Positions 3,001 through 32,131 are shown, counted from the stretch's first letter. The stretch is 41,124 bases of DNA from an uncultured Candidatus Bathyarchaeia archaeon (GCA_964353625.1 CAYGWT010000331.1:1-41124); one strand, 5' to 3'. The notes: a model not told the origin generated them from the letters alone. Made by a program: numbers and translations.

Positions 3001-5888
3001 TTGAACTTCAGGAGAAGAAGAACAACACCATTGCTAGGGAACTGAGAAGGATCTACAACAATCCTTTATACTTCCGTGATATCGCACCTGATATCAACTA
3101 CATGGTTGATGGGATTGTTGCAGCTTCCCAGAGCGCAGAGAAACATGAAGCAAATGGCATCAAGGGGCAGGACGAAAATACTGCCAAAGAGAAGGTGCTA
3201 GATGCGGCTTTGGGAGATACGGTTGACTGGATCCCAGAAGATCCTGTGCTGACCGACAAGCTCAAGGAGAAGATCCTCGGTGAAGTGGATGGTGCTGATC
3301 TTACGAACTGGTACGCTGGTGGCCTACAGGCCTCTGAGGTGCGTGGCAGTACCCTGATTGGTACGATCTACCGGCTGATGGACAACGCCTCGAAGCGGGC
3401 TGAGCGGTTCAACCGTGAGTATGTCAAGCCCCTTGAGAGGCTGTGGCAACCTGTTCTACGAGATCGTCGTTTGACGAGGTTGATGCACGCCATCTTCACT
3501 ACGGAACTCAAAGCTACTACTCAGTTCACTGAGGAACAGCTCTCCCGTTGGCTGACTCCTAAGGAGATCAACTCCTACTTGGCTATGCGCCAGGTTCTTG
3601 ACCTAGCCATAGACGAGCAGAACGATGCACTGCTGCAGGTTGGACTCAAGCCCGTAACCCCGTTGGAGGCGTACTTCGCTTCCCGCTGGTCTGGTCCGTG
3701 GCGTAGCGTGATCCGCAACGCTGAAGGAAAGATAGTGTGGGTTGTGGCTGAGAACACTAAAGGCAAGGCACAAAAAGCAGTGGCTTGGCTCAAGGCCAGG
3801 AATCCTATGCTGGTCTCTGAGGAGGTCTCCTTTCACCACGCAGAAACTGGTTCGGAGAACAAACTACAGGCAGGCTACGCAGAGCTGCTGAAGATGCTGG
3901 ATCCGGGTGACAAGGACACCAACGCCCTCCGCGAGGCATGGGAAAATGCCATGGTGGGTGTGTCCGAGAACATCATGAACCAAGAGAAGCACTTCAAGAA
4001 TAAGACCGGGGTTCGTGGTTTCCGTGGGGATAGGCCTTGGGCAGACTCGTATGAGGACTCAAGAGACTTCTTCCTGGAGCAGTTCAAGTACCTGAAAGCT
4101 GCATCGGAGTGGGCATACATGCAAACTCCGCTCAAGACGGCTAAGGATATCCTGACTGATCCTGAGATCGCCCTGATGCAGAAGAACAACGTCACCTACT
4201 CTCGAGAGTATATCCGCCAGTACATGGGGTATGGTACTTCGAAGTGGGTAGACGGAATGGAGAACTCCCTGTCTGAGTGGTTTAGCTGGCTCCCGTCCGG
4301 AACTGTGGATATGGCGATCGGCTCAGCCAAGACACTGTTCTACATCTCTGCTCTTGGATACAACATGGGCTACATGATCTATGCCCTGCTGCAGCCTATG
4401 CTTGGGGCTGGGAAACACGCACGGCTCTCGACTGAGGGGTATCGTCACAATGTGGGTTGGACTCTGCTGACAAGCATTTCCTTGGGTTTGGGTGCCGTAA
4501 TGCACCACTATACCCGTCAGATGCTGTCCTATGCACAGGGTGATGTCAACCGTAAAGCCCTTGACGCTAAGATCAAGGAACTTCGGGAGAACATCAGCGA
4601 CGACAAAGATATGATGTTCTACATGGACTACATCGAAGACAACGGAATCATTGACATGTCCCCACACACGGACATTCAAGACCTGTACGTACCTGAAGGT
4701 GTTGTCTATGCACGGCGTGTTCTTGGTGCTACCACAGGCTTCGTTGAGGCGATCTCTAGGGCCATGTGCTTCTTCAGTTTCGTGGCACACCTGCACCAGT
4801 CTGGTAAGGGTTTGTCCAAGGAACAGATTGCGCAGATGGCTGATGAGGCTACCAAAGACGTCATGGCGGATTACCGACCTAACGAGCGGGCTATGATCTT
4901 CCAGAAGGCTGGCCTCTCCGGTAAGGCTCTGTCTACCCTCCAGACGTTCAAGTTCAACTGGATGTCCCAGGTGGTCAAGTACTCCAAGATGGGCTACAAG
5001 GACAGCAACTGGCGTCCGTTCCTTTCTCAGATGTCTGTCTACCTGATCCTGGCCGGTGCGCTGGGCTCGGTTGGGCTAGACGATCTGGATGATCTCTGGT
5101 ACTTCCTGCTGTCAGGGGTGGACAACAAGACCTACATGGAGTGGAAGGACAGAGGCCCGAAAGCTTTCCTTATGCGGAACCTCAATGGCTGGCTGGCCTA
5201 TGGTGCTGTGGCTCAAGCTACCGGTACCAACCTCCACACCCGGGGTAGCCTTGGTGATGTACTTCCGTGGGACCCCAACAGGGGAGCAGCGGAGAACTTC
5301 GCTAACTGGATCCCGTTTGTGGGCTCTACGTATTCCGCCGGTGCTGCTGCAGTGGCTGGAGCCAAGGAGTTCATGGGCAAGGGCAACCCGGACAACAACG
5401 CTGCAGCGATCTACAAGGGTCTGCCTGCGGCACTCAAAGGTCCGGTTGATGTCAAATCTGATATGTTCAACTACGGGGGTATGTCCCTGAGTACGGCTGA
5501 CCCAGAGCTGGGCGTCTATCGCAGGTCTGAGGAAGAGAAGACCAAGCGAATGTTCGGTCTTAGATCTCAACAAGAGTACGAAACCATGGAGGGCAGGTAT
5601 CGACACCAACGCACTGACCGCGCTATCCAGAAACGTCTGTCTGACGCCTCTGACGCATTCACTGCGTCGCTGCTGAAGGGGGATGCCCGTGCTACTAAGT
5701 ACCTCGAAGACTACATCACGTTAGGAGGTGATCCAAAGAATCTCGTCGCATCTGGCAAACTGACGGATGCTGTGCGGCGTAAGGCTCTGGATTACTCGCA
5801 GCAGTTGATGCTCAAAGCTCGCCCCGGAAACAGGGCAGCTATCCAAAGCCTAATCGACTACTACCAAAGCTACGCTCCTAACAGATGA
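3..5888 (+). CDS. Giant virion-associated (internal/ejection or polyvalent-type) protein, 5'-truncated by the window edge. It has an embedded HExxH metallopeptidase motif and a C-terminal multi-TM, Gly/Ala-rich region.
   Basis: The ORF track starts at GTG 102, but the same frame has no stop back to nt 3 (VGDKGDGTYSLDVTAEDNNETVDRSSFTSLTDL-VKYLDK), so the gene probably begins upstream of the window. HEMVH lies at 2568-2582. Hydrophobic segments occur in the last third (FYISALGYNMGYMIYALLQPML, WTLLTSISLGLGAVM, MSVYLILAGALGSVGL). The stop overlaps the ATG of the following muramidase (ATGA). Confidence 0.6.
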   Translation, partial: VGDKGDGTYSLDVTAEDNNETVDRSSFTSLTDLVKYLDKTYGKHITTKLGLGQVAKAPMPNLVEDLGPTSWKEKADEIASGQIISASAKGSGLYDVSNIYDMDVNYTVDKNIFNFDVWSTKIGSTYYSIRIALGAPNFDFQIRQVGEDFPQTIALNYKSWEEFISFLASYDPDVAKRFGVYAEAMAAMTEEEGKSSHYHAKLLQKLKKLSSNYPIQFTKAAVTWDDNEGVTWTALLMDYSKASQFVIKSYGYDPNVPFQLMLLQDNEIFTLDQYGDEHDLLEVVNESVPEEQGAMLMQGPNSYGEHLASAVGFSAPKLKTKDPVIPFDNGTLEALKDFDQYVSWIDSQLAANGDVGWFRKATAGISKYLSKLPRFSEWYKKAYFKNKDGTPWIWVHATAQDIANFIPKQANAIFMTQAPEFSQMFHGMSENWMVNNLEKVLNQTQLQAFLLAVRTDPEWALEAQRNGNDIRVVPLSELKRMDRYHKYVLQWLPSRRNSMPLVTNVQFVWDWEKMEDVERLADVLPSWIGTRSEVIYKLKSGDWHFIEQKEVRHALENLGYEAFHTREGEEKHLAVMDTKRVKSAIGNPDLFGDNDFLVKAESVEDEQTVDTTARVPFFEGDNETVPIFENIKALPIGSFVAYKDNEGTMRLAEVVGTRMGPHESGKKAFYPRVRQVSPNGIDPAKMPLFELHPDEIVIPFVLPIEKTKTNFIKMYGDHKRWMAYLTQLRVTGMINQQQMGKVISQLHLGASISKDSVLADVKLPVEMISADGIVDTKALFKWLIEDEKVLAERPDMAALAGFLANQVGDVQIRVAMENGKILKTVPGKDNQMANYNPGSHTITLGREGFHPGVILHEMVHAATYRALLEYFEIKGTMTSPRIPVEQMPPAVQRIYRQYLAVLKVAGSYKYGKEGKSQATLGASWQYGLMNLGEFVSEAMTNRTFQLELVKIAGQPEPKTFKEWMKSAWGQLMQSIGTMLGMDIPESSMMAEFLYNFSSLVELQEKKNNTIARELRRIYNNPLYFRDIAPDINYMVDGIVAASQSAEKHEANGIKGQDENTAKEKVLDAALGDTVDWIPEDPVLTDKLKEKILGEVDGADLTNWYAGGLQASEVRGSTLIGTIYRLMDNASKRAERFNREYVKPLERLWQPVLRDRRLTRLMHAIFTTELKATTQFTEEQLSRWLTPKEINSYLAMRQVLDLAIDEQNDALLQVGLKPVTPLEAYFASRWSGPWRSVIRNAEGKIVWVVAENTKGKAQKAVAWLKARNPMLVSEEVSFHHAETGSENKLQAGYAELLKMLDPGDKDTNALREAWENAMVGVSENIMNQEKHFKNKTGVRGFRGDRPWADSYEDSRDFFLEQFKYLKAASEWAYMQTPLKTAKDILTDPEIALMQKNNVTYSREYIRQYMGYGTSKWVDGMENSLSEWFSWLPSGTVDMAIGSAKTLFYISALGYNMGYMIYALLQPMLGAGKHARLSTEGYRHNVGWTLLTSISLGLGAVMHHYTRQMLSYAQGDVNRKALDAKIKELRENISDDKDMMFYMDYIEDNGIIDMSPHTDIQDLYVPEGVVYARRVLGATTGFVEAISRAMCFFSFVAHLHQSGKGLSKEQIAQMADEATKDVMADYRPNERAMIFQKAGLSGKALSTLQTFKFNWMSQVVKYSKMGYKDSNWRPFLSQMSVYLILAGALGSVGLDDLDDLWYFLLSGVDNKTYMEWKDRGPKAFLMRNLNGWLAYGAVAQATGTNLHTRGSLGDVLPWDPNRGAAENFANWIPFVGSTYSAGAAAVAGAKEFMGKGNPDNNAAAIYKGLPAALKGPVDVKSDMFNYGGMSLSTADPELGVYRRSEEEKTKRMFGLRSQQEYETMEGRYRHQRTDRAIQKRLSDASDAFTASLLKGDARATKYLEDYITLGGDPKNLVASGKLTDAVRRKALDYSQQLMLKARPGNRAAIQSLIDYYQSYAPNR

Positions 5889-6352
5889 GTCTATTTCACA
5901 AGATCATACCCTTTGTTCTGGAGCATGAAGGAGGGTACGTAAACGACAAGGATGACCCAGGTGGGGAGACCAAGTACGGGATCTCCAAGCGGGCGTTTCC
6001 TCACCTGAACATCCTGGACCTGACCCAGAAAGAAGCTATCCAGATCTACTACGACAAATACTGGAAGCACGACTGGGAACAACTCGGGTTCCCTCTAGCT
6101 GCATGTATGTTTGATACAGCAGTGAACATGGGACACTCCCGAGCCAACCACTTCCTTAAACTGTGTAGCAGGAACCACGACAACTACCTGAAGTTGAGGG
6201 CAGATCGTTACAACGAATTGATCTCCGACAATCCCACGCTCAAGAAGTTCGAGAAGGGGTGGATGAACAGGGTGGCACAACTCCGAAGGTTCATCGATGC
6301 AGGTAATGTAGGAAACTTCATTCACGGTGGAAATCGTAAGGACATAACATGA
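5885..6352 (+). CDS. GH108-type muramidase with a PG_binding_3-like C-terminus (endolysin or virion-associated lysin)
   Basis: The N-terminal motif LEHEGGYVNDKDDPGGETKYGIS is typical of glycoside hydrolase family 108. The C-terminal KGWMNRVAQL resembles the PG_binding_3 ending. It has an ATGA overlap with the upstream giant ORF. Confidence 0.85.
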   Translation: MSLFHKIIPFVLEHEGGYVNDKDDPGGETKYGISKRAFPHLNILDLTQKEAIQIYYDKYWKHDWEQLGFPLAACMFDTAVNMGHSRANHFLKLCSRNHDNYLKLRADRYNELISDNPTLKKFEKGWMNRVAQLRRFIDAGNVGNFIHGGNRKDIT

Positions 6353-7261: not shown

Positions 7262-8885
7262 CTCCTTTGTGGTGCTTAGCCTCCTCGTAGGGAACAGCCG
7301 TCAAGGGTTGACCTCCTCTACTACCATCTGGGTAACAGGTAAAGCCTCGGAGGCGAGGGGCATACTTTGCAAGTACTCGAGCAAACTTATCCACACTCCC
7401 GCTGTTATTGGCTTGTGTTCCCCAAGCAGGTAGGTTAATTGTGGAGCTGATCGACATGTCAACGTAATCTTGTACGTCGGCTTGGAACTTGATTCGTCGC
7501 TCATAGTCATTCGCTAGGTCAAGGGCAGTTTCAATTGATTCGGGTTTGACTCCGAGTTCGTTGATAAGGTGCTCTGCAGTTGCATCGACAACAAATTGAT
7601 ACTTCCACTTAGTTCCGCCAGTGAGGAAGCGACGCTTGAAAGCGACTGCGAACAGTGGCTCAATACCCGTTGTTGTGCTAGCAAGGATTCCGATCGTGCC
7701 GGTTGGAGCAATAGCGCGGTAAGCCACCGGCCTACTGATGAACAGTCTGTCACAATGTTCATTAGCTGCCCGTTCGCTTTCGTCGCGGTACACTGCCAAC
7801 CACTTTCTAAGTTCATCGTTTACCTCGTACTTAAATCCTTTCTTGAGCAGCCACTCGTGGATACCCATAAGTCCAAGTCCAATACGGCGGTTCTTCTCCC
7901 GTACTTTGTACACTTTCTCGTATGGCAGATCAGCCCGAATGGACCCGCAGATGAGGAACTTGGCCGCCAGAGTAACAACATCTTTGAGTTCTTCCAGAGA
8001 AGAAATATTGCCGAGATTGAGGCTGCCAAGATTGCATACGTCAGAATCATCTTCGCTCGTAACTTCAGTACATGCGTTACGAAGGGTTTCATTCTGCTTG
8101 TCTCCGAAGTTGAAGCTGAATCCCGGTTCCCCGGTCATCATTGCTTGACGGCAATTCTCTACAAAGGTAGCGTGTAAGTGCCGAGTATTTAAGCCCTCCG
8201 AGTCTGTAGTATTCAACCAAGAGTCGTCGTAGTTCACGCTGATGTTGGTCATGTCCAACGGAGCGTTGTGGTTGAAGTTCTCCTGCTTCGCTTGCCAGTG
8301 AGTCAGGTTTGGTGTGATGTACTGGTTGTGCCAATCTTTGGCCTTAAGGAAAAGCGGTATGTCAGGATGTTGCCAATTAAGGCTCGCGTAAATTGCGCTT
8401 CGTCGAGAGCCTCCTTGCATAACATTGCGTCCAATCCCGTTGATTGCTTCCATGAGAGGGATAGGGCCTGAAGCGACTCCTCCAGTGCGTTTAAGCACTG
8501 CACCACTCTCTCTAAACACACTGTAGTCTGCTCCAATCCCACCCCCAGTCATCAAGCAAGAACTGGCTCGCCAGAATAGATTAGCCCACTCTTCTCGTGT
8601 GTCAGCTTCACCACGAAGGAGGTAACAGTTGTTGTAGTACTTGGCATCTCTACCCGAGTAGTAGAGATATCTGCCTCCGGGAATAAACTTCTGAGTCTTG
8701 ATAAGCTCTGAGAGAAATCGCCTGTCGTCGTCAGACATAAGCTTAGATGTGGTGCCCCATCTAGATCCGCAAACGTCTTCGACAAGACGATCTGCAAGAG
8801 CATCCCAACTGTCATTTGGCCCCTGTGCATACTTATTCCTGAATATCGACACCGCGAACGGAGTCTTGAATCGTTGCACTTGCAT
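7200..8885 (-). CDS. Ribonucleotide reductase catalytic subunit (probably class II, B12-dependent)
   Basis: Catalytic-core motifs RNACTEV and VCNLGSLNLGN are present, with a C-terminal redox Cys pair CDISGKGGSCGV. The protein is 561 aa and no NrdB-like beta subunit is seen in the window. The class assignment is an inference. Confidence 0.8.
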   Translation of the reverse strand: MQVQRFKTPFAVSIFRNKYAQGPNDSWDALADRLVEDVCGSRWGTTSKLMSDDDRRFLSELIKTQKFIPGGRYLYYSGRDAKYYNNCYLLRGEADTREEWANLFWRASSCLMTGGGIGADYSVFRESGAVLKRTGGVASGPIPLMEAINGIGRNVMQGGSRRSAIYASLNWQHPDIPLFLKAKDWHNQYITPNLTHWQAKQENFNHNAPLDMTNISVNYDDSWLNTTDSEGLNTRHLHATFVENCRQAMMTGEPGFSFNFGDKQNETLRNACTEVTSEDDSDVCNLGSLNLGNISSLEELKDVVTLAAKFLICGSIRADLPYEKVYKVREKNRRIGLGLMGIHEWLLKKGFKYEVNDELRKWLAVYRDESERAANEHCDRLFISRPVAYRAIAPTGTIGILASTTTGIEPLFAVAFKRRFLTGGTKWKYQFVVDATAEHLINELGVKPESIETALDLANDYERRIKFQADVQDYVDMSISSTINLPAWGTQANNSGSVDKFARVLAKYAPRLRGFTCYPDGSRGGQPLTAVPYEEAKHHKGVEFEEIDICDISGKGGSCGV

Positions 8886-8981
8886 AGTCTTTGATATCCT
8901 CCTCGGCCTCCCGGGCCTGTAGCTCCGAGAGGCGGTGTTTCCTGGTCCTGGAATTACCCTTCAGGTGTATGATTGCTTTCT

Positions 8982-9239
8982 CTACTGGTTGTCGCTCGTC
9001 TTGGCCCATTCTACCAGCCCATTGTGTCGTGCTGCACACTCCCCATACTGCTCTAGGAGTTCAATTGAAAAAGTCAACAGATCCCCCATCGTTGTGACTG
9101 ATGGGTTCGGGACTGGGTGGCACTTCTCCATCAGTGCCGGTGGCGGCGTTGGCCGCACGAACTGCGTCGTCGAGGAGCATCCTACCAGACTCAGGCAGAA
9201 CACACTCACGATAGACAGGTTTCTCAACTTCACGAACAA
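8982..9239 (-). CDS. o-spanin (Rz1-like outer-membrane lipoprotein)
   Basis: It has a signal sequence with lipobox LSLVGC followed by a Pro-rich mature part (VRPTPPPALMEKCHPVPNPS). It starts inside the i-spanin gene in another frame and extends past its end, which is the overlapped spanin architecture. Confidence 0.8.
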   Translation of the reverse strand: MFVKLRNLSIVSVFCLSLVGCSSTTQFVRPTPPPALMEKCHPVPNPSVTTMGDLLTFSIELLEQYGECAARHNGLVEWAKTSDNQ

Positions 9240-16129: not shown

Positions 16130-17353
16130 TCAATCAATGTCCTCGTAACGGCCAATCTCGGGTTTGATTAGCACCATGAACTGACCATGTCTTGCACCTG
16201 GGTCAGTGTCGATATCGCCTGTGAGTTTGTTTTTGCAGATGTTCAGGAAGCGAGTGTACTCGAAGCCTTGGTCATATGTCTTACCAATGCCAAGGATCCA
16301 ATCTGCTTCTGCCTGCTTCGCTGTCTTAGCCTCGGCAACGTGGATCATTTGCAAGTAGCGTACCCCTTCGGCAGTCCCATCAGCTTGGCAGACTCCGATA
16401 ACAGGGCAGTAAGCCTTGGACAGCTCCCTACCCCATTGGTAGCACGCTCCGAGTTCCAGATCCCGGCGATCTGCTTTCCACCCTTGGATCTTGTCGATCT
16501 GGTCAAAGATCAACAAGGAGGGTTTCTCTTTCTCGACAAGCGACTCTACGGTATGACGGCTGATACCAGCACTGTCATACAGAAGAATCTTGTCTCGTAC
16601 CTTCTTCTTGTATGCCTCCCTTGCTCGTTCTGGATGCTTCAGGATCTGATCCTTGGTAGCACCTAGCGCAGATAGATAGTTTCGGAACTTGACATCCTCC
16701 CCGGCCTCCTCATTGTTGACCCAGAGGATAGGCCCGGCGTCATCGGCCAGTTGCTCAGCCATATGGGTAGCCTCAGAGGATAGGAACGTCGTCTTGCCAG
16801 TTTCAGGGCGTGCGAAGACGAAACCGAAATCACCCTTCCTGAGTGAGCCAAGCGCCCGATTGAGGCAGTTGAGTCTCCATCGCAGACCTGGCTGTTTGAT
16901 GTGAGTCTCGATGATGGATTCGAGATCGTCAGTGACATACTGCGGATCCTCAATTTGGTTTACTAGTAGTAAACGATCTGCGATCTCCTTGACAGCTTCG
17001 ATCGACTTCTTGCCAAGGGATGCTTCGTATGCAGCGAGGGACAAGTCCTTGCAGACCTGTTCGTGCTTGAATCGCTCTAGCAGCTGTCTTGCTGACGCTC
17101 CAGCATCCACGTTGGACATGGTGTTGAAGACAGTGCGCAGGTACTCCTTGTGCTTATCTGCTACCCCCCGAGCAAAGGTGACAGCAGCGATATCTTCGAG
17201 AGTGGGATCCTTCTCTTCGTACTTGAACCAGCGATCGATCGAGTGCAGTACAGGCCGTACCTCCGGAGAGAACTCCTCCTCCTTCAGGTACTGTCGATAG
17301 TCAGAGTAGACCCCACGATCAAGCAACAGCTTGAGCAGTGGTAGCTCGTACAA
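16130..17353 (-). CDS. DnaB-like / T7 gp4-type replicative helicase
   Basis: Walker A is FARPETGKTTFLS and Walker B is LLIFDQIDKI. The RecA-like C-terminal domain is typical of phage hexameric helicases. It uses a TTG start preceded by AGGAGG. Confidence 0.85.
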   Translation of the reverse strand: MYELPLLKLLLDRGVYSDYRQYLKEEEFSPEVRPVLHSIDRWFKYEEKDPTLEDIAAVTFARGVADKHKEYLRTVFNTMSNVDAGASARQLLERFKHEQVCKDLSLAAYEASLGKKSIEAVKEIADRLLLVNQIEDPQYVTDDLESIIETHIKQPGLRWRLNCLNRALGSLRKGDFGFVFARPETGKTTFLSSEATHMAEQLADDAGPILWVNNEEAGEDVKFRNYLSALGATKDQILKHPERAREAYKKKVRDKILLYDSAGISRHTVESLVEKEKPSLLIFDQIDKIQGWKADRRDLELGACYQWGRELSKAYCPVIGVCQADGTAEGVRYLQMIHVAEAKTAKQAEADWILGIGKTYDQGFEYTRFLNICKNKLTGDIDTDPGARHGQFMVLIKPEIGRYEDID

Positions 17354-17402
17354 AGTTCCTCCTATGCCTAACTCCGTAGAACCTACGAAGCTTGTTAATA
17401 AG

Positions 17403-17424
17403 GGCGGGCCTTGAAGCCCGCCTT
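17403..17424. terminator. GC hairpin (GGCGGGC-N6-GCCCGCC) lying between a promoter and the helicase start
   Basis: The plus strand reads gGGCGGGCcttgaaGCCCGCCttcttttt. On the minus strand the same hairpin is followed only by CTTATTAAC. Orientation and function are ambiguous. Confidence 0.4.
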
Positions 17425-17447: not shown

Positions 17448-17476
17448 ATTGTACCATGAAATTCGGTTTTTGTCAA
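17448..17476 (-). promoter_or_regulatory. Near-consensus sigma70-type promoter (minus strand) upstream of the helicase gene
   Basis: The minus strand reads TTGACA-aaaaccgaatttcatgg-TACAAT, with a 17-nt spacer and TGg giving an extended -10. Confidence 0.6.
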
Positions 17477-17483
17477 TCTGCTA

Positions 17484-17799
17484 TGTTGTATCGAAGCAAC
17501 ACTAGTCGTAGGTGTCTGATTTAACAGGCGATGCTTCGTCCCAGACTAGCTGCCCCTCCAAAGACTCAGGGCCGTACTCCATACAGATGTCGCAAAAATC
17601 CAACATCAGTTCTCGCTCTTGTTGCGAAAGTACAACACCACATCCCTTGCAGTGTGTCCGAATTACAACAACCTCCCGGAGTTCTACGTCCTCCTTCCCT
17701 GTAACCGGATCCCAGTGTTGCCGAATTACAACATCCTGTTGTTTTTCTGCAACATCTTGTTGTGTGTTTACAACACCTTCTTGTTGTTTTTGTGCAACA
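17484..17799. promoter_or_regulatory. Array A of the 18-bp palindrome TGTTG-N8-CAACA (six perfect copies plus one degenerate)
   Basis: Perfect copies start at 17484, 17620, 17716, 17737, 17758 and 17782. A degenerate copy (TGTGT...CAACA) starts at 17653. The 17484 copy ends 7 nt from the -35 of the 17448-17476 promoter. The others lie inside ORF 17502..17804. Confidence 0.7.
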
Positions 17800-17804
17800 G
17801 TCAT
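17502..17804 (-). CDS. Hypothetical 100-aa protein with a C-terminal CxxC...CxxC zinc ribbon. Its N-terminal half is encoded by the palindrome array.
   Basis: The ATG overlaps the upstream stop (ATGA) and GGAG lies 8 nt upstream. The C-terminal half contains HCKGCG...FCDIC. The N-terminal half has repetitive QQ(E/D)(G/V)VV(N/I) units caused by the DNA repeats. Confidence 0.45.
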   Translation of the reverse strand: MTVAQKQQEGVVNTQQDVAEKQQDVVIRQHWDPVTGKEDVELREVVVIRTHCKGCGVVLSQQERELMLDFCDICMEYGPESLEGQLVWDEASPVKSDTYD

Positions 17805-18178
17805 TTCTTCTTCTCCTTCAGCGCGGTGTCGATTCGCTCAATGAGCTTGCTTGGCGTATCGGTCGTGTGTCCGTCAAACGTCTGGGACTCAACGACAATC
17901 GGACGCGCCTCCTGCAGCAACTCCCGCAGCCTTTCGTTCTCCGCATCGGCCACATCTCCTCGTTCGCTTGCTAGACGAAGCAACTCCCGCAGTCGTCCAG
18001 CGTCCACGCATGCGTCAATCGACTCCTTGACGAACTTATCTTTAGCGGCAATCTCCGCATGCAGCCTGTCATTCTGTTCTGTCAGTCGCTTGACTGTCTG
18101 TTCCAGTACTTGGTTGTCTCTCAGCAAATCGAAGTAGCCAGGACAGATGTTATCGGCATCCTCTTTATATGTACTCAT
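17801..18178 (-). CDS. Hypothetical coiled-coil protein
   Basis: It has heptad-like, Leu/Glu/Arg-rich sequence (LEQTVKRLTEQNDRLHAEIAAKDKF..., RLRELLRLASERGD...ENERLRELLQEA). GGGGAGG lies upstream of the ATG. Confidence 0.6.
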   Translation of the reverse strand: MSTYKEDADNICPGYFDLLRDNQVLEQTVKRLTEQNDRLHAEIAAKDKFVKESIDACVDAGRLRELLRLASERGDVADAENERLRELLQEARPIVVESQTFDGHTTDTPSKLIERIDTALKEKKK

Positions 18179-18179
18179 T

Positions 18180-18386
18180 TTACCTCCCCGAGTCCTTAGA
18201 GCCGAAGCGATTCTCTATGATGCGCTGACGGAACACGTTGAACACCGCCACGACGATCAGGGAAAAGATGGCGAAGATGGCGATGCCCGCTGTGAGTTCC
18301 GGGAACCATCGGACCCCGGCGAGAAAAGCTCCGAAAGTCCCGAATGCTCCAAGTGTCTGTAGAGCGGCTAATAGGTTGACGTTCAT
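18180..18386 (-). CDS. Small membrane protein with two TMDs
   Basis: Translation is MNVNLLAALQTLGAFGTFGAFLAGVRWFPELTAGIAIFAIFSLIVVAVFNVF.... The start is moved to ATG 18386, which has AAGGAGG upstream and an ATGA overlap with the upstream mini-ORF. Confidence 0.55.
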   Translation of the reverse strand: MNVNLLAALQTLGAFGTFGAFLAGVRWFPELTAGIAIFAIFSLIVVAVFNVFRQRIIENRFGSKDSGR

Positions 18387-27083: not shown

Positions 27084-27451
27084 TACCACGCCTCCTTGAG
27101 ATTGAAACAAAACGCAGTGACATCGTTGCCACTGTTTGGGTTACGCTCCGTACCCAACTCCTGACTAGCAGGTAGCCGACGAAGCAGCGACAGGACTTGA
27201 CGATAATGGAGATCCCTCTGGGTTGGTAGTCCCGGAGACTGCGGAATAAAAAAGAAACAGAAGGTCTTGTTCGCACGAATCGCGGCGATGATACTCTTCT
27301 CGACACGCTTCGGCCAAGACTGGCAGTTTTGGAACGCCAACGTACCTTCCACCGCAGCACAGCAAGCGAGGTACCTAATTGTGCCGTAGTCGTTGTTGAA
27401 CTTGGCCCTGTATTTCGCAGGCAACTTTTCATACGCTTTATAGTAGTTCAT
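27083..27451 (-). CDS. Hypothetical 122-aa protein. Its ATG is fused to a TTTACT-N6-AGTAAA motif.
   Basis: The minus strand reads TTTACTGGAGCTAGTAAATG at the start. Confidence 0.6.
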   Translation of the reverse strand: MNYYKAYEKLPAKYRAKFNNDYGTIRYLACCAAVEGTLAFQNCQSWPKRVEKSIIAAIRANKTFCFFFIPQSPGLPTQRDLHYRQVLSLLRRLPASQELGTERNPNSGNDVTAFCFNLKEAW

Positions 27452-29866: not shown

Positions 29867-30281
29867 TGTTGTAAGAAAGCAACAAATGTCTGGACTACGG
29901 GCGAGCGCAAGGTATTGTTGTATTTACGCAACAGCTCGCCCCTAAAAGTATATGCTCGCTTAGAATGATTCTTATTCAGACCCCCCGGGTGGGGGGAAAA
30001 GTCCGGGCTTTAGTCCGTGCGAAAGGGTGCTTCGCACAATGCGCACGCTTTTTTGAAACAGGGTCTCCGGTTTAGCGGAGCTAAACTGGCAGTGAAGCTC
30101 TGCTTCACCGCATAGACTGTTGTATTTTTACAACAGTTCTTACAGAAGTGTTGTATTTTTACAACAAAGTGTTGTTTTTTTGCAACATGTACCCACGAAG
30201 TGTTGTATTTTCGCAACACTTTTGAGTGGGTGATCCCGCAAAAGCGGGATTTAGTCCCGAAACTGTTGCTTTTTTGCAACA
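29867..30281. promoter_or_regulatory. Array B of the 18-bp palindrome TGTTG-N8(9)-CAACA (seven copies)
   Basis: Copies start at 29867, 29916, 30117, 30148, 30169 (N9), 30201 and 30264. The spacers are T-rich (TATTTTTA twice, TATTTTCG, CTTTTTTG). The last copy ends 15 nt before the -35 at 30297. Confidence 0.75.
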
Positions 30282-30296
30282 GATTTCGAGACATAC

Positions 30297-30325
30297 TTGA
30301 CAAAATCAAAAAAATATGCTATAAT
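30297..30325 (+). promoter_or_regulatory. Perfect-consensus extended -10 sigma70 promoter for the rightward arm
   Basis: The sequence is TTGACA-aaatcaaaaaaatatgc-TATAAT, with a 17-nt spacer and TGc immediately upstream of the -10. Confidence 0.75.
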
Positions 30326-30484
30326 GAAAACAGTAGTAGCAAGTTTACGAAGCTACAGTGTGGGCAAGGCCCACTGTGGATGTAACTGTTACTGTAGCTG
30401 AGTAACTTGCGTAGAAAGATCTTCCTCCGATAGGAGGCTGACTTACTGAAAGCACTGTTTTCATCCCGATTGGAGCGGAGGACT
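30326..30484 (+). promoter_or_regulatory. Structured 5' leader of about 150 nt
   Basis: There is a long interrupted hairpin at 30337-30413 (9 bp AGCTACAGT/ACTGTAGCT, plus 4 bp and 5 bp extensions). An apical GTGGGC-aag-GCCCAC stem and a CCTCC-gata-GGAGG hairpin (30424-30437) are also present. GAAAACAGT (30326-34) is complementary to ACTGTTTTC (30454-62). Confidence 0.45.
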
Positions 30485-31207
30485 ATGCTCACTGACGTAG
30501 AGAGGTTGAAGGACCGAGAGGCTAAGAAAAGGGTTCCAGGAGGTTGGTTCTCCGACAAACAGAAGCTCGAGGCTGTGCAGATGTGGCTCATCACCGGGTC
30601 AATGCCAGCTACCGCTGCTGCCCTGAACATAAACGTTAGCACGATTGAGAAGTGGAGATATACTGACTGGTGGAAGGAACTCTCTGACCAGATCAAGGCT
30701 GAGGGGAGGGTTAAGCTCTCCGGTAGGCTGCAGAAGATCGTTGGCCGGACCTTGGACCAGCTGGAGGACAGGATCGAGAATGGTGACTTCATCCTGGATA
30801 GCAAGACTGGGCAGATCGTCCGTAAGCCACTGATGGCCAGGGACCTGACCCGAATCACCACAGATTTCATGGCTTCCAGCCAAAAGCTGGAATCCGTAAC
30901 CAAAGAGGAAGCTACTGTCCAGGCTATCGAAGACCGGTTGAAGCTCATCGCCGAGAACTTTGCTTCCTTCGCCAAGAAGGTCAGGAAAGTGGAGGTGGAG
31001 GATTTGACACATGTGGAGCAACTGTCTGTTCTGGGCACTGAGGCAGAGGTTATCGAAGGGGGGACACCTCCTTATCGGGAGGAGCCCGGGGACACTGATC
31101 CTCAGGACCTACTGGATGGATCCGGAGAAGAGGATCTGGTACTTCGCCCCGCTGAGACCGAGGAAAGCCCCACTGTCCTACTTCCACAAGTTCCTGTTCA
31201 AGGGTAG
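30485..31207 (+). CDS. HTH protein, probably a terminase small subunit (Sf6 gp1-like N-terminal HTH); could alternatively be a regulator
   Basis: ATG 30485 is preceded by GGAGCGGAGG. The N-terminal DKQKLEAVQMWLITGSMPATAAALNINVSTIEKWR looks like a helix-turn-helix, followed by a coiled-coil oligomerisation-like region and an acidic tail. Confidence 0.5.
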   Translation: MLTDVERLKDREAKKRVPGGWFSDKQKLEAVQMWLITGSMPATAAALNINVSTIEKWRYTDWWKELSDQIKAEGRVKLSGRLQKIVGRTLDQLEDRIENGDFILDSKTGQIVRKPLMARDLTRITTDFMASSQKLESVTKEEATVQAIEDRLKLIAENFASFAKKVRKVEVEDLTHVEQLSVLGTEAEVIEGGTPPYREEPGDTDPQDLLDGSGEEDLVLRPAETEESPTVLLPQVPVQG

Positions 31208-31222
31208 ACCCAGGAGACTGAT

Positions 31223-31861
31223 TTGAGTGATATCGGAACCTATGTAAGGGGTGGGGTGATCATTGATCCCTACTCCCAGATGTATTATGGCACCCCGTAT
31301 GGGGGCGACTATGGTATTGGGTGGAGGGACCTGGTAGGAAACCCTACTGTCCGGGGTGTAGGTGCTGCTGATCCTGACTGGAAAGCGATAACCGGTCTGA
31401 CAGGGATGTGGGGGTATTCCTTCTCTGCGTCTACGATGCAGCAGATCTGGTTCACCTTCCACCTTGACCACGACTACGCTCCAGGCACCCCGATCTATCT
31501 GCACGTTCACTGGCTGAACGCTGCTGCGGTCCCCAACACCGGTAATGTTCGCTGGGGGCTCCAGTATACCTACGCCAGAGGACACCAGCAGCAGGCATTC
31601 CCTGCCGCTACCACTGTCTATGTAACCCAGGCAGCACAATCTACCCGTTACATGCACATGATCGCTGAGGTGGCAGATGCGGACGTAGTCCCATCCACTA
31701 ACCTGCAGACTGACGGATTGTTGCTTGTCCGTGCCTTCCGGGATGCTGCTAACGCTGGGGATACCTGTACCGATGAGGTGTTCATGCTGACCATGGACTG
31801 CCACTACCAATCTGACCGGCACGCTACCAGAAACAAGGCACCGGACTTCAATGCCTACTAG
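31223..31861 (+). CDS. Hypothetical protein (possibly structural)
   Basis: It is 212 aa, with a TTG start and AGGAG 6 nt upstream. I recognise no motif. Confidence 0.55.
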   Translation: MSDIGTYVRGGVIIDPYSQMYYGTPYGGDYGIGWRDLVGNPTVRGVGAADPDWKAITGLTGMWGYSFSASTMQQIWFTFHLDHDYAPGTPIYLHVHWLNAAAVPNTGNVRWGLQYTYARGHQQQAFPAATTVYVTQAAQSTRYMHMIAEVADADVVPSTNLQTDGLLLVRAFRDAANAGDTCTDEVFMLTMDCHYQSDRHATRNKAPDFNAY

Positions 31862-31870
31862 AGGTGCCAG

Positions 31871-32131
31871 ATGCCCAAGATTGCAGAACGGCTGACTCGT
31901 CAGCTTCGTGGTAGGGGGGAGAAGGAGCCAAAAGCTCTTGCCTATGCCCTGCTGAACAAGATGGGACATATGAAGAATGGGGAGCTAACTGCCAAGGGAA
32001 AGGCCCGGAACGCCATGACCCCTGGAGAAAGAGCCAAGGATCGGCAGGCTAGCTACACTGGCCGGAAACCTTCGGACTTCAAGTACAACCCGAAAACGAA
32101 CCAAGCCACTGTAAAGCGAGGTAGCCGATAA
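31871..32131 (+). CDS. Hypothetical basic 86-aa protein
   Basis: It is Lys/Arg-rich and has a TAATG overlap with the next gene. Confidence 0.5.
   Translation: MPKIAERLTRQLRGRGEKEPKALAYALLNKMGHMKNGELTAKGKARNAMTPGERAKDRQASYTGRKPSDFKYNPKTNQATVKRGSR

Follow-up and report, generated by a model that had tools for sequence, protein, structure and literature searches.

Palindromic sites beside two near-consensus phage promoters, written in part into the coding sequence of a zinc-ribbon gene

A palindromic 18-bp site, TGTTG-N8-CAACA, recurs in a DNA record of 41,124 nucleotides (CAYGWT010000331.1:1-41124 of GCA_964353625.1, filed under an uncultured Candidatus Bathyarchaeia archaeon), the whole of which we refer to as the window. 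The window is a complete podovirus-type phage genome of ~41 kilobases (kb) with two control regions. It holds 13 perfect copies of the site against 0.12 expected, a number reached in none of 100 shuffles, and these copies are split in two clusters, six at 17484-17799 and seven at 29867-30281. The first cluster runs through a small open reading frame (ORF) at 17502-17804. Promoter-like sites that match the consensus in at least 11 of 12 positions number only two in the genome, and each lies just downstream of one cluster. The features concerned are the following, with the strand given where one applies.

17484-17501: perfect site TGTTGTATCGAAGCAACA, intergenic, directly after the ORF stop codon
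17588-17605: copy with one mismatch, TGTCGCAAAAATCCAACA, in another codon phase, inside the codons for MLDFCDI
17620-17637: perfect site inside the conserved zinc-ribbon domain, in codons G56-V-V-L-S-Q-Q62
17653-17670: degenerate copy with two mismatches, in codons V46-V-I-R-T-H51; the peptide there in the homologue P0002 is VVIQTH
17716-17799: four perfect sites (17716, 17737, 17758, 17782), spaced 21, 21 and 24 bp, coding for ORF residues 2-30
17502-17804, minus strand: ORF of 100 residues; 1-49 an apparently repeat-dictated extension of xV[V/A]xxQ[Q/H] units, 50-100 a C4 zinc ribbon with an acidic tail
17448-17476, minus strand: sigma-70-type promoter TTGACA-17-TACAAT with an extended -10 TG, 11/12, reading into the helicase gene
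29867-29933: perfect sites at 29867 and 29916, on the side of the divergent region that faces the early operon, with equivalents in the relative L312
30118-30281: five perfect sites (30118, 30149, 30170, 30201, 30264), spaced 31, 21, 31 and 63 bp
30297-30325, plus strand: promoter TTGACA-17-TATAAT with an extended -10 TG, 12/12 consensus, reading into the terminase-small-subunit-like gene

The initial annotation of this DNA had located the six perfect copies of the first cluster and the degenerate copy at 17653, and had given in-ORF spacings of 33, 63, 21, 21 and 24 bp; all of these were recovered. It had missed the one-mismatch copy at 17588, which may be a weak site or a chance match. It had also placed the in-ORF copies in the 5' half of the ORF, a description that fails for 17620, within the zinc ribbon. 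The helicase promoter was as annotated, and the site at 17484-17501 ends 7 nt upstream of its -35, which gives a predicted centre of ~-51.5. At the other locus the site at 30264 ends 15 nt from the -35 of the rightward promoter (predicted centre -59.5). The start sites of both promoters are predicted, and the distances of the site centres are relative to these. Measured between site centres, most steps correspond to an integral number of helical turns (21, 31-33, 63 and 104 bp); the 24-bp step does not.

The ORF looks like a genuine gene, to judge from its sequence. It overlaps the upstream gene by ATGA, has GGAG 8 nt 5' of its ATG and encodes a zinc-binding pattern, C52xxC55...C71xxC74 (spacing CX2CX15CX2C), all as first described. 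It is backed by a syntenic homologue, P0002 (97 residues, contig ERZ21966605), which lies ~158 nt upstream of a 407-residue helicase; the C-terminal 51 residues of the two proteins are identical at 43 positions. Helicase relatives carry a family of 56 zinc ribbons of 55-75 residues, which start directly at CxxC and have no repeat extension (M-R-C-N-A-C-N-V-I-L-T-T-Q-E...D-L-C-N-K-C and an acidic tail; as a profile, C-x2-C-x-(V/I)-(I/L)-(T/S)-x-x-E ... D-(L/F)-C-x2-C plus the tail). Because these relatives begin at CxxC, the first ~50 residues of the ORF product and of P0002 would be a lineage-specific extension. The profile of the 56 members placed the window ORF first among 748 stop-to-stop segments at only E=0.05, with P0002 second (E=0.14), and by eye the pattern agrees with a loop ~6 residues shorter; the kinship is suggestive and, by profile, not significant. 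Apart from P0002, an exhaustive profile search with the ORF family yielded only a repeat protein from eukaryotes, a spurious match; metagenomes scanned with the alignment of the two proteins gave nothing, and domain searches with the product gave no family match (no Pfam match at E≤0.01). Its predicted structure had a predicted local distance difference test score of 49.5, too poor for use.

The N-terminal half of the product follows the DNA sites. Read on the coding strand, each site gives xxT-GTT-GNN-NNN-NNN-CAA-CAx, which is translated as V-(V/A)-x-x-Q-(Q/H). Over the four sites that align between the ORF product and P0002, the residues fixed by GTT and CAA are identical in 8 of 8 cases, and those coded wholly by the spacer (two per site) in 0 of 8. 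The in-ORF spacings are multiples of three in five cases out of five (chance ~0.4%), compared with two of six in the non-coding array at 29867-30281 (49, 202, 31, 21, 31 and 63 bp) and none of nine in the non-coding array of the relative L303 (19-23 bp). These counts, with the C-terminal identity to P0002, bear out two earlier proposals: the comparison supports an N-terminal extension dictated by the DNA sites, and the same DNA would be both a site array and real coding sequence. The initial annotation had also raised the question of whether homologues conserve the repeats or the protein: P0002 keeps the half-site residues, and the 56 distant relatives keep the zinc ribbon without the repeat extension.

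The peptide encoded at site 17620, GVVLSQQ, lies inside the zinc ribbon and resembles the N-terminal units, and Tandem Repeats Finder returned a 21-bp period over 17729-17799; growth of the array by 7-codon duplications is therefore plausible. A stronger claim, that the repeats are mere tandem duplication with no binder, or act as hairpins in the messenger RNA (mRNA) to control translation of the ORF, could call on the same 21-bp period and on the folding of the mRNA of the ORF 5' half, which is somewhat better than that of shuffles (z = -2.4). We regard it as very improbable. The stem of each hairpin would be no longer than 5 bp, the location of the second array and of most copies elsewhere, upstream of promoters, means that they are not co-transcribed, and the conservation of half-sites while spacers drift is the signature of a DNA-binding site, not of recent duplication. 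Part of the extension has a second likeness. The stretch DVAEKQQDVVIRQHWDPVTGKEDVELRE (window 17673-17756, ORF residues 17-44) matches, in frame and with 15 of 28 residues identical, a segment of a ribonucleotide reductase gene that in a close relative contains a LAGLIDADG intein (L303 19691-19774; L304 10804-10887); the window's own intein-less ribonucleotide reductase gave no match to it. Since P0002 is without 14 residues of this stretch (VIRQHWDPVTGKED, an alignment gap), the extension appears to be a mosaic.

Among relatives the array and the zinc-ribbon gene part ways. The closest relatives with DNA (L303, L304 and L305; helicase 79% identical) have 10-11 units in the intergenic gap from the primase gene to the next gene (8798-9120), three of them perfect and the rest TGTTGCAAAAAAGAGACA-type variants. 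Searches by tblastn and by profile through the loci fetched from these three, and from L310 of the same relative, turned up no zinc-ribbon homologue; the loci include the 20.6-kb one of L303. L306 (a 67% relative) has a 69-residue zinc ribbon without the extension, with one site towards the 3' end of its coding sequence and in another codon phase, and in L308 (61%) a single site overlaps the point where the next gene starts. The site is thus kept at the helicase-module locus of L303, L306 and L308, and it is kept at the terminase-small-subunit locus of L310 and L311 (in both identical to the window site 30264), L312 (three sites) and L313; site number per locus differs between relatives. Of 75 more distant relatives, at least 44 have a TTGACA-17-TAnnnT promoter upstream of the helicase gene, and the TGTTG site occurs at that promoter only in L040 and L043, where a one-mismatch copy abuts and overlaps the first base of the -35, and in L047 (4-nt gap). 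The site is absent near the helicase promoter in ~52 of the 56 relatives that bear the zinc ribbon; gene and site are both present in L008, L040, L043 and L047. On this comparison of genomes the array and the gene are separable.

This separability bears directly on the suggestion that the zinc-ribbon protein is the cognate, possibly autoregulated, binder. Such a protein would be a small C4 zinc-finger regulator like P2 Ogr/P4 Delta, acting on its own locus and on the late promoter. Gene and array do coincide in the window and in P0002, the zinc-ribbon ORF of L306 contains one site, the four relatives just named carry both, and the site is formally TGT-N12-ACA, with the annotated activator sites of P2 beginning TGTTGT. 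Against this, large arrays persist in L303-L305 where no homologue was found in the loci fetched, most relatives with the gene are without the site, and the zinc-ribbon family profile, run over the motif-bearing loci, found the family only in L008, with none in the flanks fetched of other lineages. The extension-bearing family has two members only, and the product has no Pfam Ogr_Delta match, its cysteine spacing being CX2CX15CX2C and that of Ogr_Delta CX2CX22CX4C (PMC3931495). The register of the half-sites also differs from that of the P2 sites. Because array and gene are separable, the idea is not supported, and we judge it distinctly unlikely.

The promoters of the close relatives differ from those of the window. 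In L310, L312 and L313 a single site lies ~53 bp upstream of the predicted start (centre ~-53.5), and, by reading of the sequences, the promoter has a -10-like hexamer (TAGTAT, TAGAAA or TATAAG) and no -35. In these relatives ATGAGGGTTTTTTTGAAAAAAACAGTNCCTCTAG follows both motif loci instead of a sigma-70 consensus promoter (L303 9075-9120, L310 3499-3545, L312 484-530), and a sigma-70-region-4-like protein is encoded (L303 9120-9833; L306 2141-2911, Pfam Sigma70_r4_2, 25.1 bits; L308 7530-8210). Neither the ATGAGGGTTTTTTTGAAAAAAACAGTNCCTCTAG element nor such a protein was found in the window. Since the relatives use ATGAGGGTTTTTTTGAAAAAAACAGTNCCTCTAG and the window uses consensus sigma-70 promoters, the site appears to have outlived a change of promoter type.

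The site is also found next to promoters well outside this lineage. A promoter-blind scan for paired sites 21 bp apart returned 34 viral contigs, about half with A/T-rich spacers like those of the window, and only one of the 34 (L008) had protein similarity across the window's replication module. Promoters of at least 10/12 lie within 80 bp of 31% of the AT-rich-spacer sites in viral contigs fetched in this promoter-blind way, compared with 5% of random positions. A scan for site-N13-15-TTGACA gave at least 120 matches; of the 88 examined, 62 have a -10 hexamer of at least 5/6, where by our own estimate ~1% would be expected, and 43 have a perfect TATAAT. The composite layout, an AT-rich-spacer TGTTG-N8-CAACA ending 3-17 bp 5' of TTGACA-16/17-TATAAT, describes the window (gaps of 7 and 15 nt) and is seen also in L002, L010, L014, L029, L033 and L047; in roughly a hundred other viral contigs the palindrome lies 3-17 bp upstream of near-consensus promoters. 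In 14 kb of L029 there are seven sites, of which six have a promoter next to them, and the genes that follow are of various kinds. The motif-bearing contigs include T4-like phages (best flap-endonuclease matches to Methylophilales phage Melnitz and cyanophages, ~58% identity) as well as other types. The earlier observation that the T-rich side of the spacer is on the plus strand in both arrays holds for six of the seven sites at 29867-30281 and for only three of the six perfect sites of the first cluster (17737, 17758 and 17782). The conclusion drawn from it, that orientation is not what matters, stands on other ground: A-rich and T-rich orientations are both found upstream of promoters in other phages, and spacer orientation is therefore irrelevant.

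On balance we favour, with modest confidence, the reading that the sites bind a dimeric, sequence-specific DNA-binding protein that acts on the adjacent promoter and that is not the ORF product and possibly is a host factor. Each element of this reading (protein binding, the dimeric nature, host encoding and activation) we infer from the arrangement described above. An array and a near-consensus sigma-70 promoter would form a unit at each locus, one driving the helicase/polymerase module and the other the terminase/structural arm. The helicase-locus array would have spread into the neighbouring zinc-ribbon gene, partly by 21-bp duplication; the start of the reading frame would have moved ~50 codons upstream of the ancestral CxxC start, and the N-terminal peptide would be a by-product of sites read in the V-(V/A)-x-x-Q-(Q/H) frame. 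Because most sites are whole helical turns apart, several dimers could lie on one face of the DNA, with cooperative binding possible. The sign of the effect we likewise infer: we prefer activation, in which the array would be an upstream activating sequence in contact with RNA polymerase, to repression, because the single site of the relatives lies ~53 bp upstream of promoters that have a -10-like hexamer and no -35. Protein bound in the helicase-locus array would also stand in the path of RNA polymerase coming from the upstream operon, since transcription from the gene at 17801-18178 has to cross this array.

The last point leads to a variant in which the same trans-acting binder is mainly a repressor or roadblock, cooperative occupation of the array shutting off the two consensus promoters and stopping upstream read-through, as do the stoperators of mycobacteriophage L5. 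The consensus promoters, that of the structural genes included, would otherwise fire constitutively; the array lies inside a transcribed ORF; and the site-to-promoter gaps in this lineage (0, 4, 7 and 15 nt) are out of phase. We nevertheless think this variant unlikely. No perfect or near-perfect site overlaps a core promoter in the window (in L040 and L043 the one-mismatch site overlaps the first -35 base), the constant ~-53.5 position in the relatives, again by reading of the sequences, is an activator-type layout, and the gaps are periodic in other phages, where the distances from site to -35 cluster at 3-6, 13-17, 23-24, 34-39, 48 and 57 bp.

Several results weigh against the promoter-acting binder that we favour. 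A consensus promoter needs no activator, the gaps of the lineage are not all in helical phase, and the positions of transcription starts come from prediction. Among the early proteins encoded in the window, no DNA-binding family was detected. An all-against-all BLAST and jackhmmer comparison of 120 coding-strand window ORFs of at least 50 residues with ~136 motif-bearing loci found no family common to the window and the other motif-bearing contigs, bar replication and structural proteins (exonuclease, polymerase); these are partial contigs, and the negative is a weak one. No host group could be tied to the motif either: it is absent from two cultured relatives with Methylophilales hosts, MEP402 (full genome) and Melnitz (first 50 kb), and among 185,579 species genomes scanned for paired sites no host regulon stood out clearly. 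The pairs in those species genomes were mostly unrelated repeats (Nostoc heptamer repeats, coding repeats), together with enhancer-binding-protein sites at sigma-54 promoters.

Individual candidates for the binder were set aside in the course of this comparison. A shared phage-encoded protein was rejected on the comparison with the partial contigs; the two winged-helix-like families common in motif-bearing loci are absent from the window, as is the sigma-region-4-like protein of the close relatives. A Methylophilales host factor was rejected on the same absence of the motif from MEP402 and from the first 50 kb of Melnitz. The motif was not found described in the searchable literature. We offer, as a tentative proposal that may well prove wrong, that TGTTG-(AT-rich N8)-CAACA is a widespread, undescribed upstream element of phage promoters, read by a host protein or by a very mobile phage protein in an under-studied host group; in this phage lineage it would control the replication and structural modules, and it would be plastic enough in evolution to range from 1 to ~11 copies and, in the window, to be written into a protein N-terminus.

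The gene layout of the window gives the setting of the two loci. A leftward arm runs from ~29.8 kb down to 7.2 kb and encodes amidoligase, ATP-grasp and glutamine-amidotransferase proteins, primase, the DnaB-like helicase, a split family-A DNA polymerase, exonucleases and ribonucleotide reductase. A rightward arm runs from ~30.5 kb past the end of the record and on to ~7 kb, with the terminase-small-subunit-like helix-turn-helix protein, the large terminase, a 760-residue ORF (with relatives that align to the portal gene region), a 1928-residue protein and lysozyme. Judged by DNA polymerase (~40% identity), the nearest phages in culture are Alcaligenes phage vB_Af_QDWS535 and the Methylophilales phages MEP401/402 (Zobellviridae), and the Manatee Spring viromes hold relatives as well; the divergent two-arm layout is common to all of these and the window. 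No Rfam family or transfer RNA was found in the window. The remaining features next to the two loci are these.

16130-17353, minus strand: DnaB-like replicative helicase, the first gene 3' of the helicase promoter
17401-17424: GC-rich hairpin AGGGCGGGCC...GCCCGCCT, located where the 5' leader of the helicase mRNA (minus strand) is predicted; on the plus strand a T-run comes after it
17801-18178, minus strand: gene for a 125-residue coiled-coil protein, whose TGA stop overlaps the ATG of the ORF
30485-31207, plus strand: first rightward gene, 240 residues, with an N-terminal helix-turn-helix (HTH_28, E=0.001, below the family cut-off)

The hairpin at 17401-17424 looks like a terminator for antisense (plus-strand) transcription, and the product of 30485-31207 is probably the terminase small subunit. 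Between this gene and the 12/12 promoter lies a leader of ~150 nt (30332-30484) with several inverted repeats, which has a conserved counterpart in relatives (GGTACACGAATG...GTGTACCGAGGAGG) and no Rfam match. In the divergent region, a G-rich palindrome, CCCCCCGGGTGGGGGG, lies at 29981-29996, and GGGGGTGGGG-like runs occupy the same place in relatives (L180 ~18345-18365, L181 ~48250-48290, L310 ~3352-3370, L312 ~352-368); with the terminase-small-subunit gene close by, a role in packaging or as an end-related signal is possible. The early arm has a second palindrome, TTACT-N6-AGTAA, in seven copies (24762, 27452, 28103, 28394, 28663, 29524 and 29643) against 0.03 expected. Five of these, read on the minus strand, wrap a GGAG/GGAGC Shine-Dalgarno core, and three lie 0-1 nt from the early-gene start codons at 27451, 28393 and 29522. 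The element may act as an operator of translation or form a hairpin that hides the ribosome-binding site. The early arm of Alcaligenes phage vB_Af_QDWS535 has an analogous TCCTAA-N2-TTAGGA in 10 copies.

The position of the first array immediately upstream of the helicase/polymerase module admits a further explanation, in which the arrays would be the iterons of one or two origins of replication that transcription from the strong promoters beside them activates, a T7-type promoter-plus-origin layout combined with lambda/SPP1-type iterons in a gene next to the helicase gene. The sites are phased and dyad-symmetric, and their two loci, 12 kb apart, can be likened to oriL and oriR of SPP1, which are likewise two loci. 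In many relatives (for example L040 and L043, ~5890-6000) the helicase gene is preceded by a strong TTGACA-17-TATAAT promoter and, after it, a (TA)n-rich stretch, and the Alcaligenes phage L181 (OK172329) has this cassette at 31818-31923 and again at 48480-48620 in its divergent region, mirroring the two loci of the window; the cassette possibly unites a promoter with an origin. The motif pair of another phage lineage adjoins two TGTGGATAA sequences resembling DnaA boxes (L013 ~590-700, L029 ~7900-8030). We doubt, all the same, that the arrays are primarily origins. Elsewhere the motif stands at many promoters per genome (six of the seven sites in L029), which fits transcription control better, and no initiator protein was recognised. 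Nor does an AT-rich unwinding element adjoin the window array: between it and the helicase gene are the promoter and the GC-rich hairpin, at a GC content of ~0.51. The minimum of the cumulative GC skew at ~30 kb, which an origin there would explain, coincides with the switch in gene orientation and is for that reason uninformative.

The locus matters in the first place as a natural example of a protein sequence dictated, as it appears, by overlapping regulatory DNA, two homologues conserving only the half-site-fixed residues in that part. Beyond the window, the orphan operator recurs beside near-consensus promoters in uncultivated phage contigs of several unrelated lineages. The identity of the binder would inform transcription control, and possibly host assignment, of these phages, and should it prove to be a host factor, the motif would serve as a signal for predicting hosts.

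Among known systems, lambda ori in gene O (also P22 gene 18, and SPP1 oriL in gene 38) resembles this locus in having phased dyad sites of ~18-19 bp in an ORF next to helicase or loader genes; in the window the sites at 17620-17799 lie inside an ORF, with ~150 nt between it and the helicase gene downstream. The lambda iterons are bound by the product of the very ORF that contains them and are followed by an AT-rich unwinding region, whereas here array and protein do not consistently co-occur and no unwinding element was seen; the window motif also marks many promoters in unrelated phages, unlike the lambda iterons. The stoperators bound by gp71 of mycobacteriophage L5 are, as here, one short operator repeated many times in a phage genome, also within transcribed regions, in which bound protein could hinder elongation. 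They are asymmetric, oriented with transcription and dispersed, and those of the window are palindromic and clustered at two promoters, with no repressor gene recognised.

The sites of P2 Ogr, P4 Delta and 186 B are TGT-N12-ACA dyads near -55. The site of the window is a formal match to that dyad, with centres at -51.5 and -59.5 in the window and ~-53.5 in L310, L312 and L313 (all from predicted starts). Ogr/Delta targets lack a -35, as the promoters of the relatives appear to do; the window promoters have TTGACA. The half-sites are GTTG-N8-CAAC in the window and ~GTTG-N14-CAAC in P2 pF, and the register differs from the pO and pV sites too. Membership in the Ogr/Delta class was rejected on this register, the cysteine spacing and the absence of a Pfam match at E≤0.01.

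Phased arrays of Fis at rrn P1 and of class I CRP promoters share with the window multiple sites on one face of the DNA upstream of strong sigma-70 promoters, and the window spacers are AT-rich and bendable. The site sequence itself does not appear to fit the consensus motifs of E. coli Fis (G-N13-C), CRP or FNR, and LexA, NtcA, TnrA, Rex and parS presumably differ in geometry or half-sites. The dyad of the Pseudomonas HexR operator, TTGT-N7-8-ACAA (PMC5489143), is similar. HexR was rejected on geometry: in the window TTGT and ACAA are separated by N6, and the bases at positions 6 and 13 vary (T/C and A/G).

The pairs of TGTTGCA-N4-TGCAACA, 21 bp apart, taken as sites of NtrC-family enhancer-binding proteins at sigma-54 promoters match both the TGTTG-N8-CAACA pattern and the 21-bp spacing. 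By reading, no sigma-54 promoter was seen next to the window arrays, which adjoin the sigma-70 type instead, and the window encodes no enhancer-binding protein. Such pairs occur in cellular genomes upstream of sigma-54-type promoters (L177 826-864 and L120 1272-1310; TTGGCACGGTATTTGCT, CTGGTACGGGATTTGCA), that of L177 right after an enhancer-binding protein gene, and they indicate that a dyad pair of this kind can be an activator site. In its kind, then, the arrangement in the window is probably a known one, an operator or upstream-activating array overlapping a gene; its orphan motif is unexpectedly widespread.

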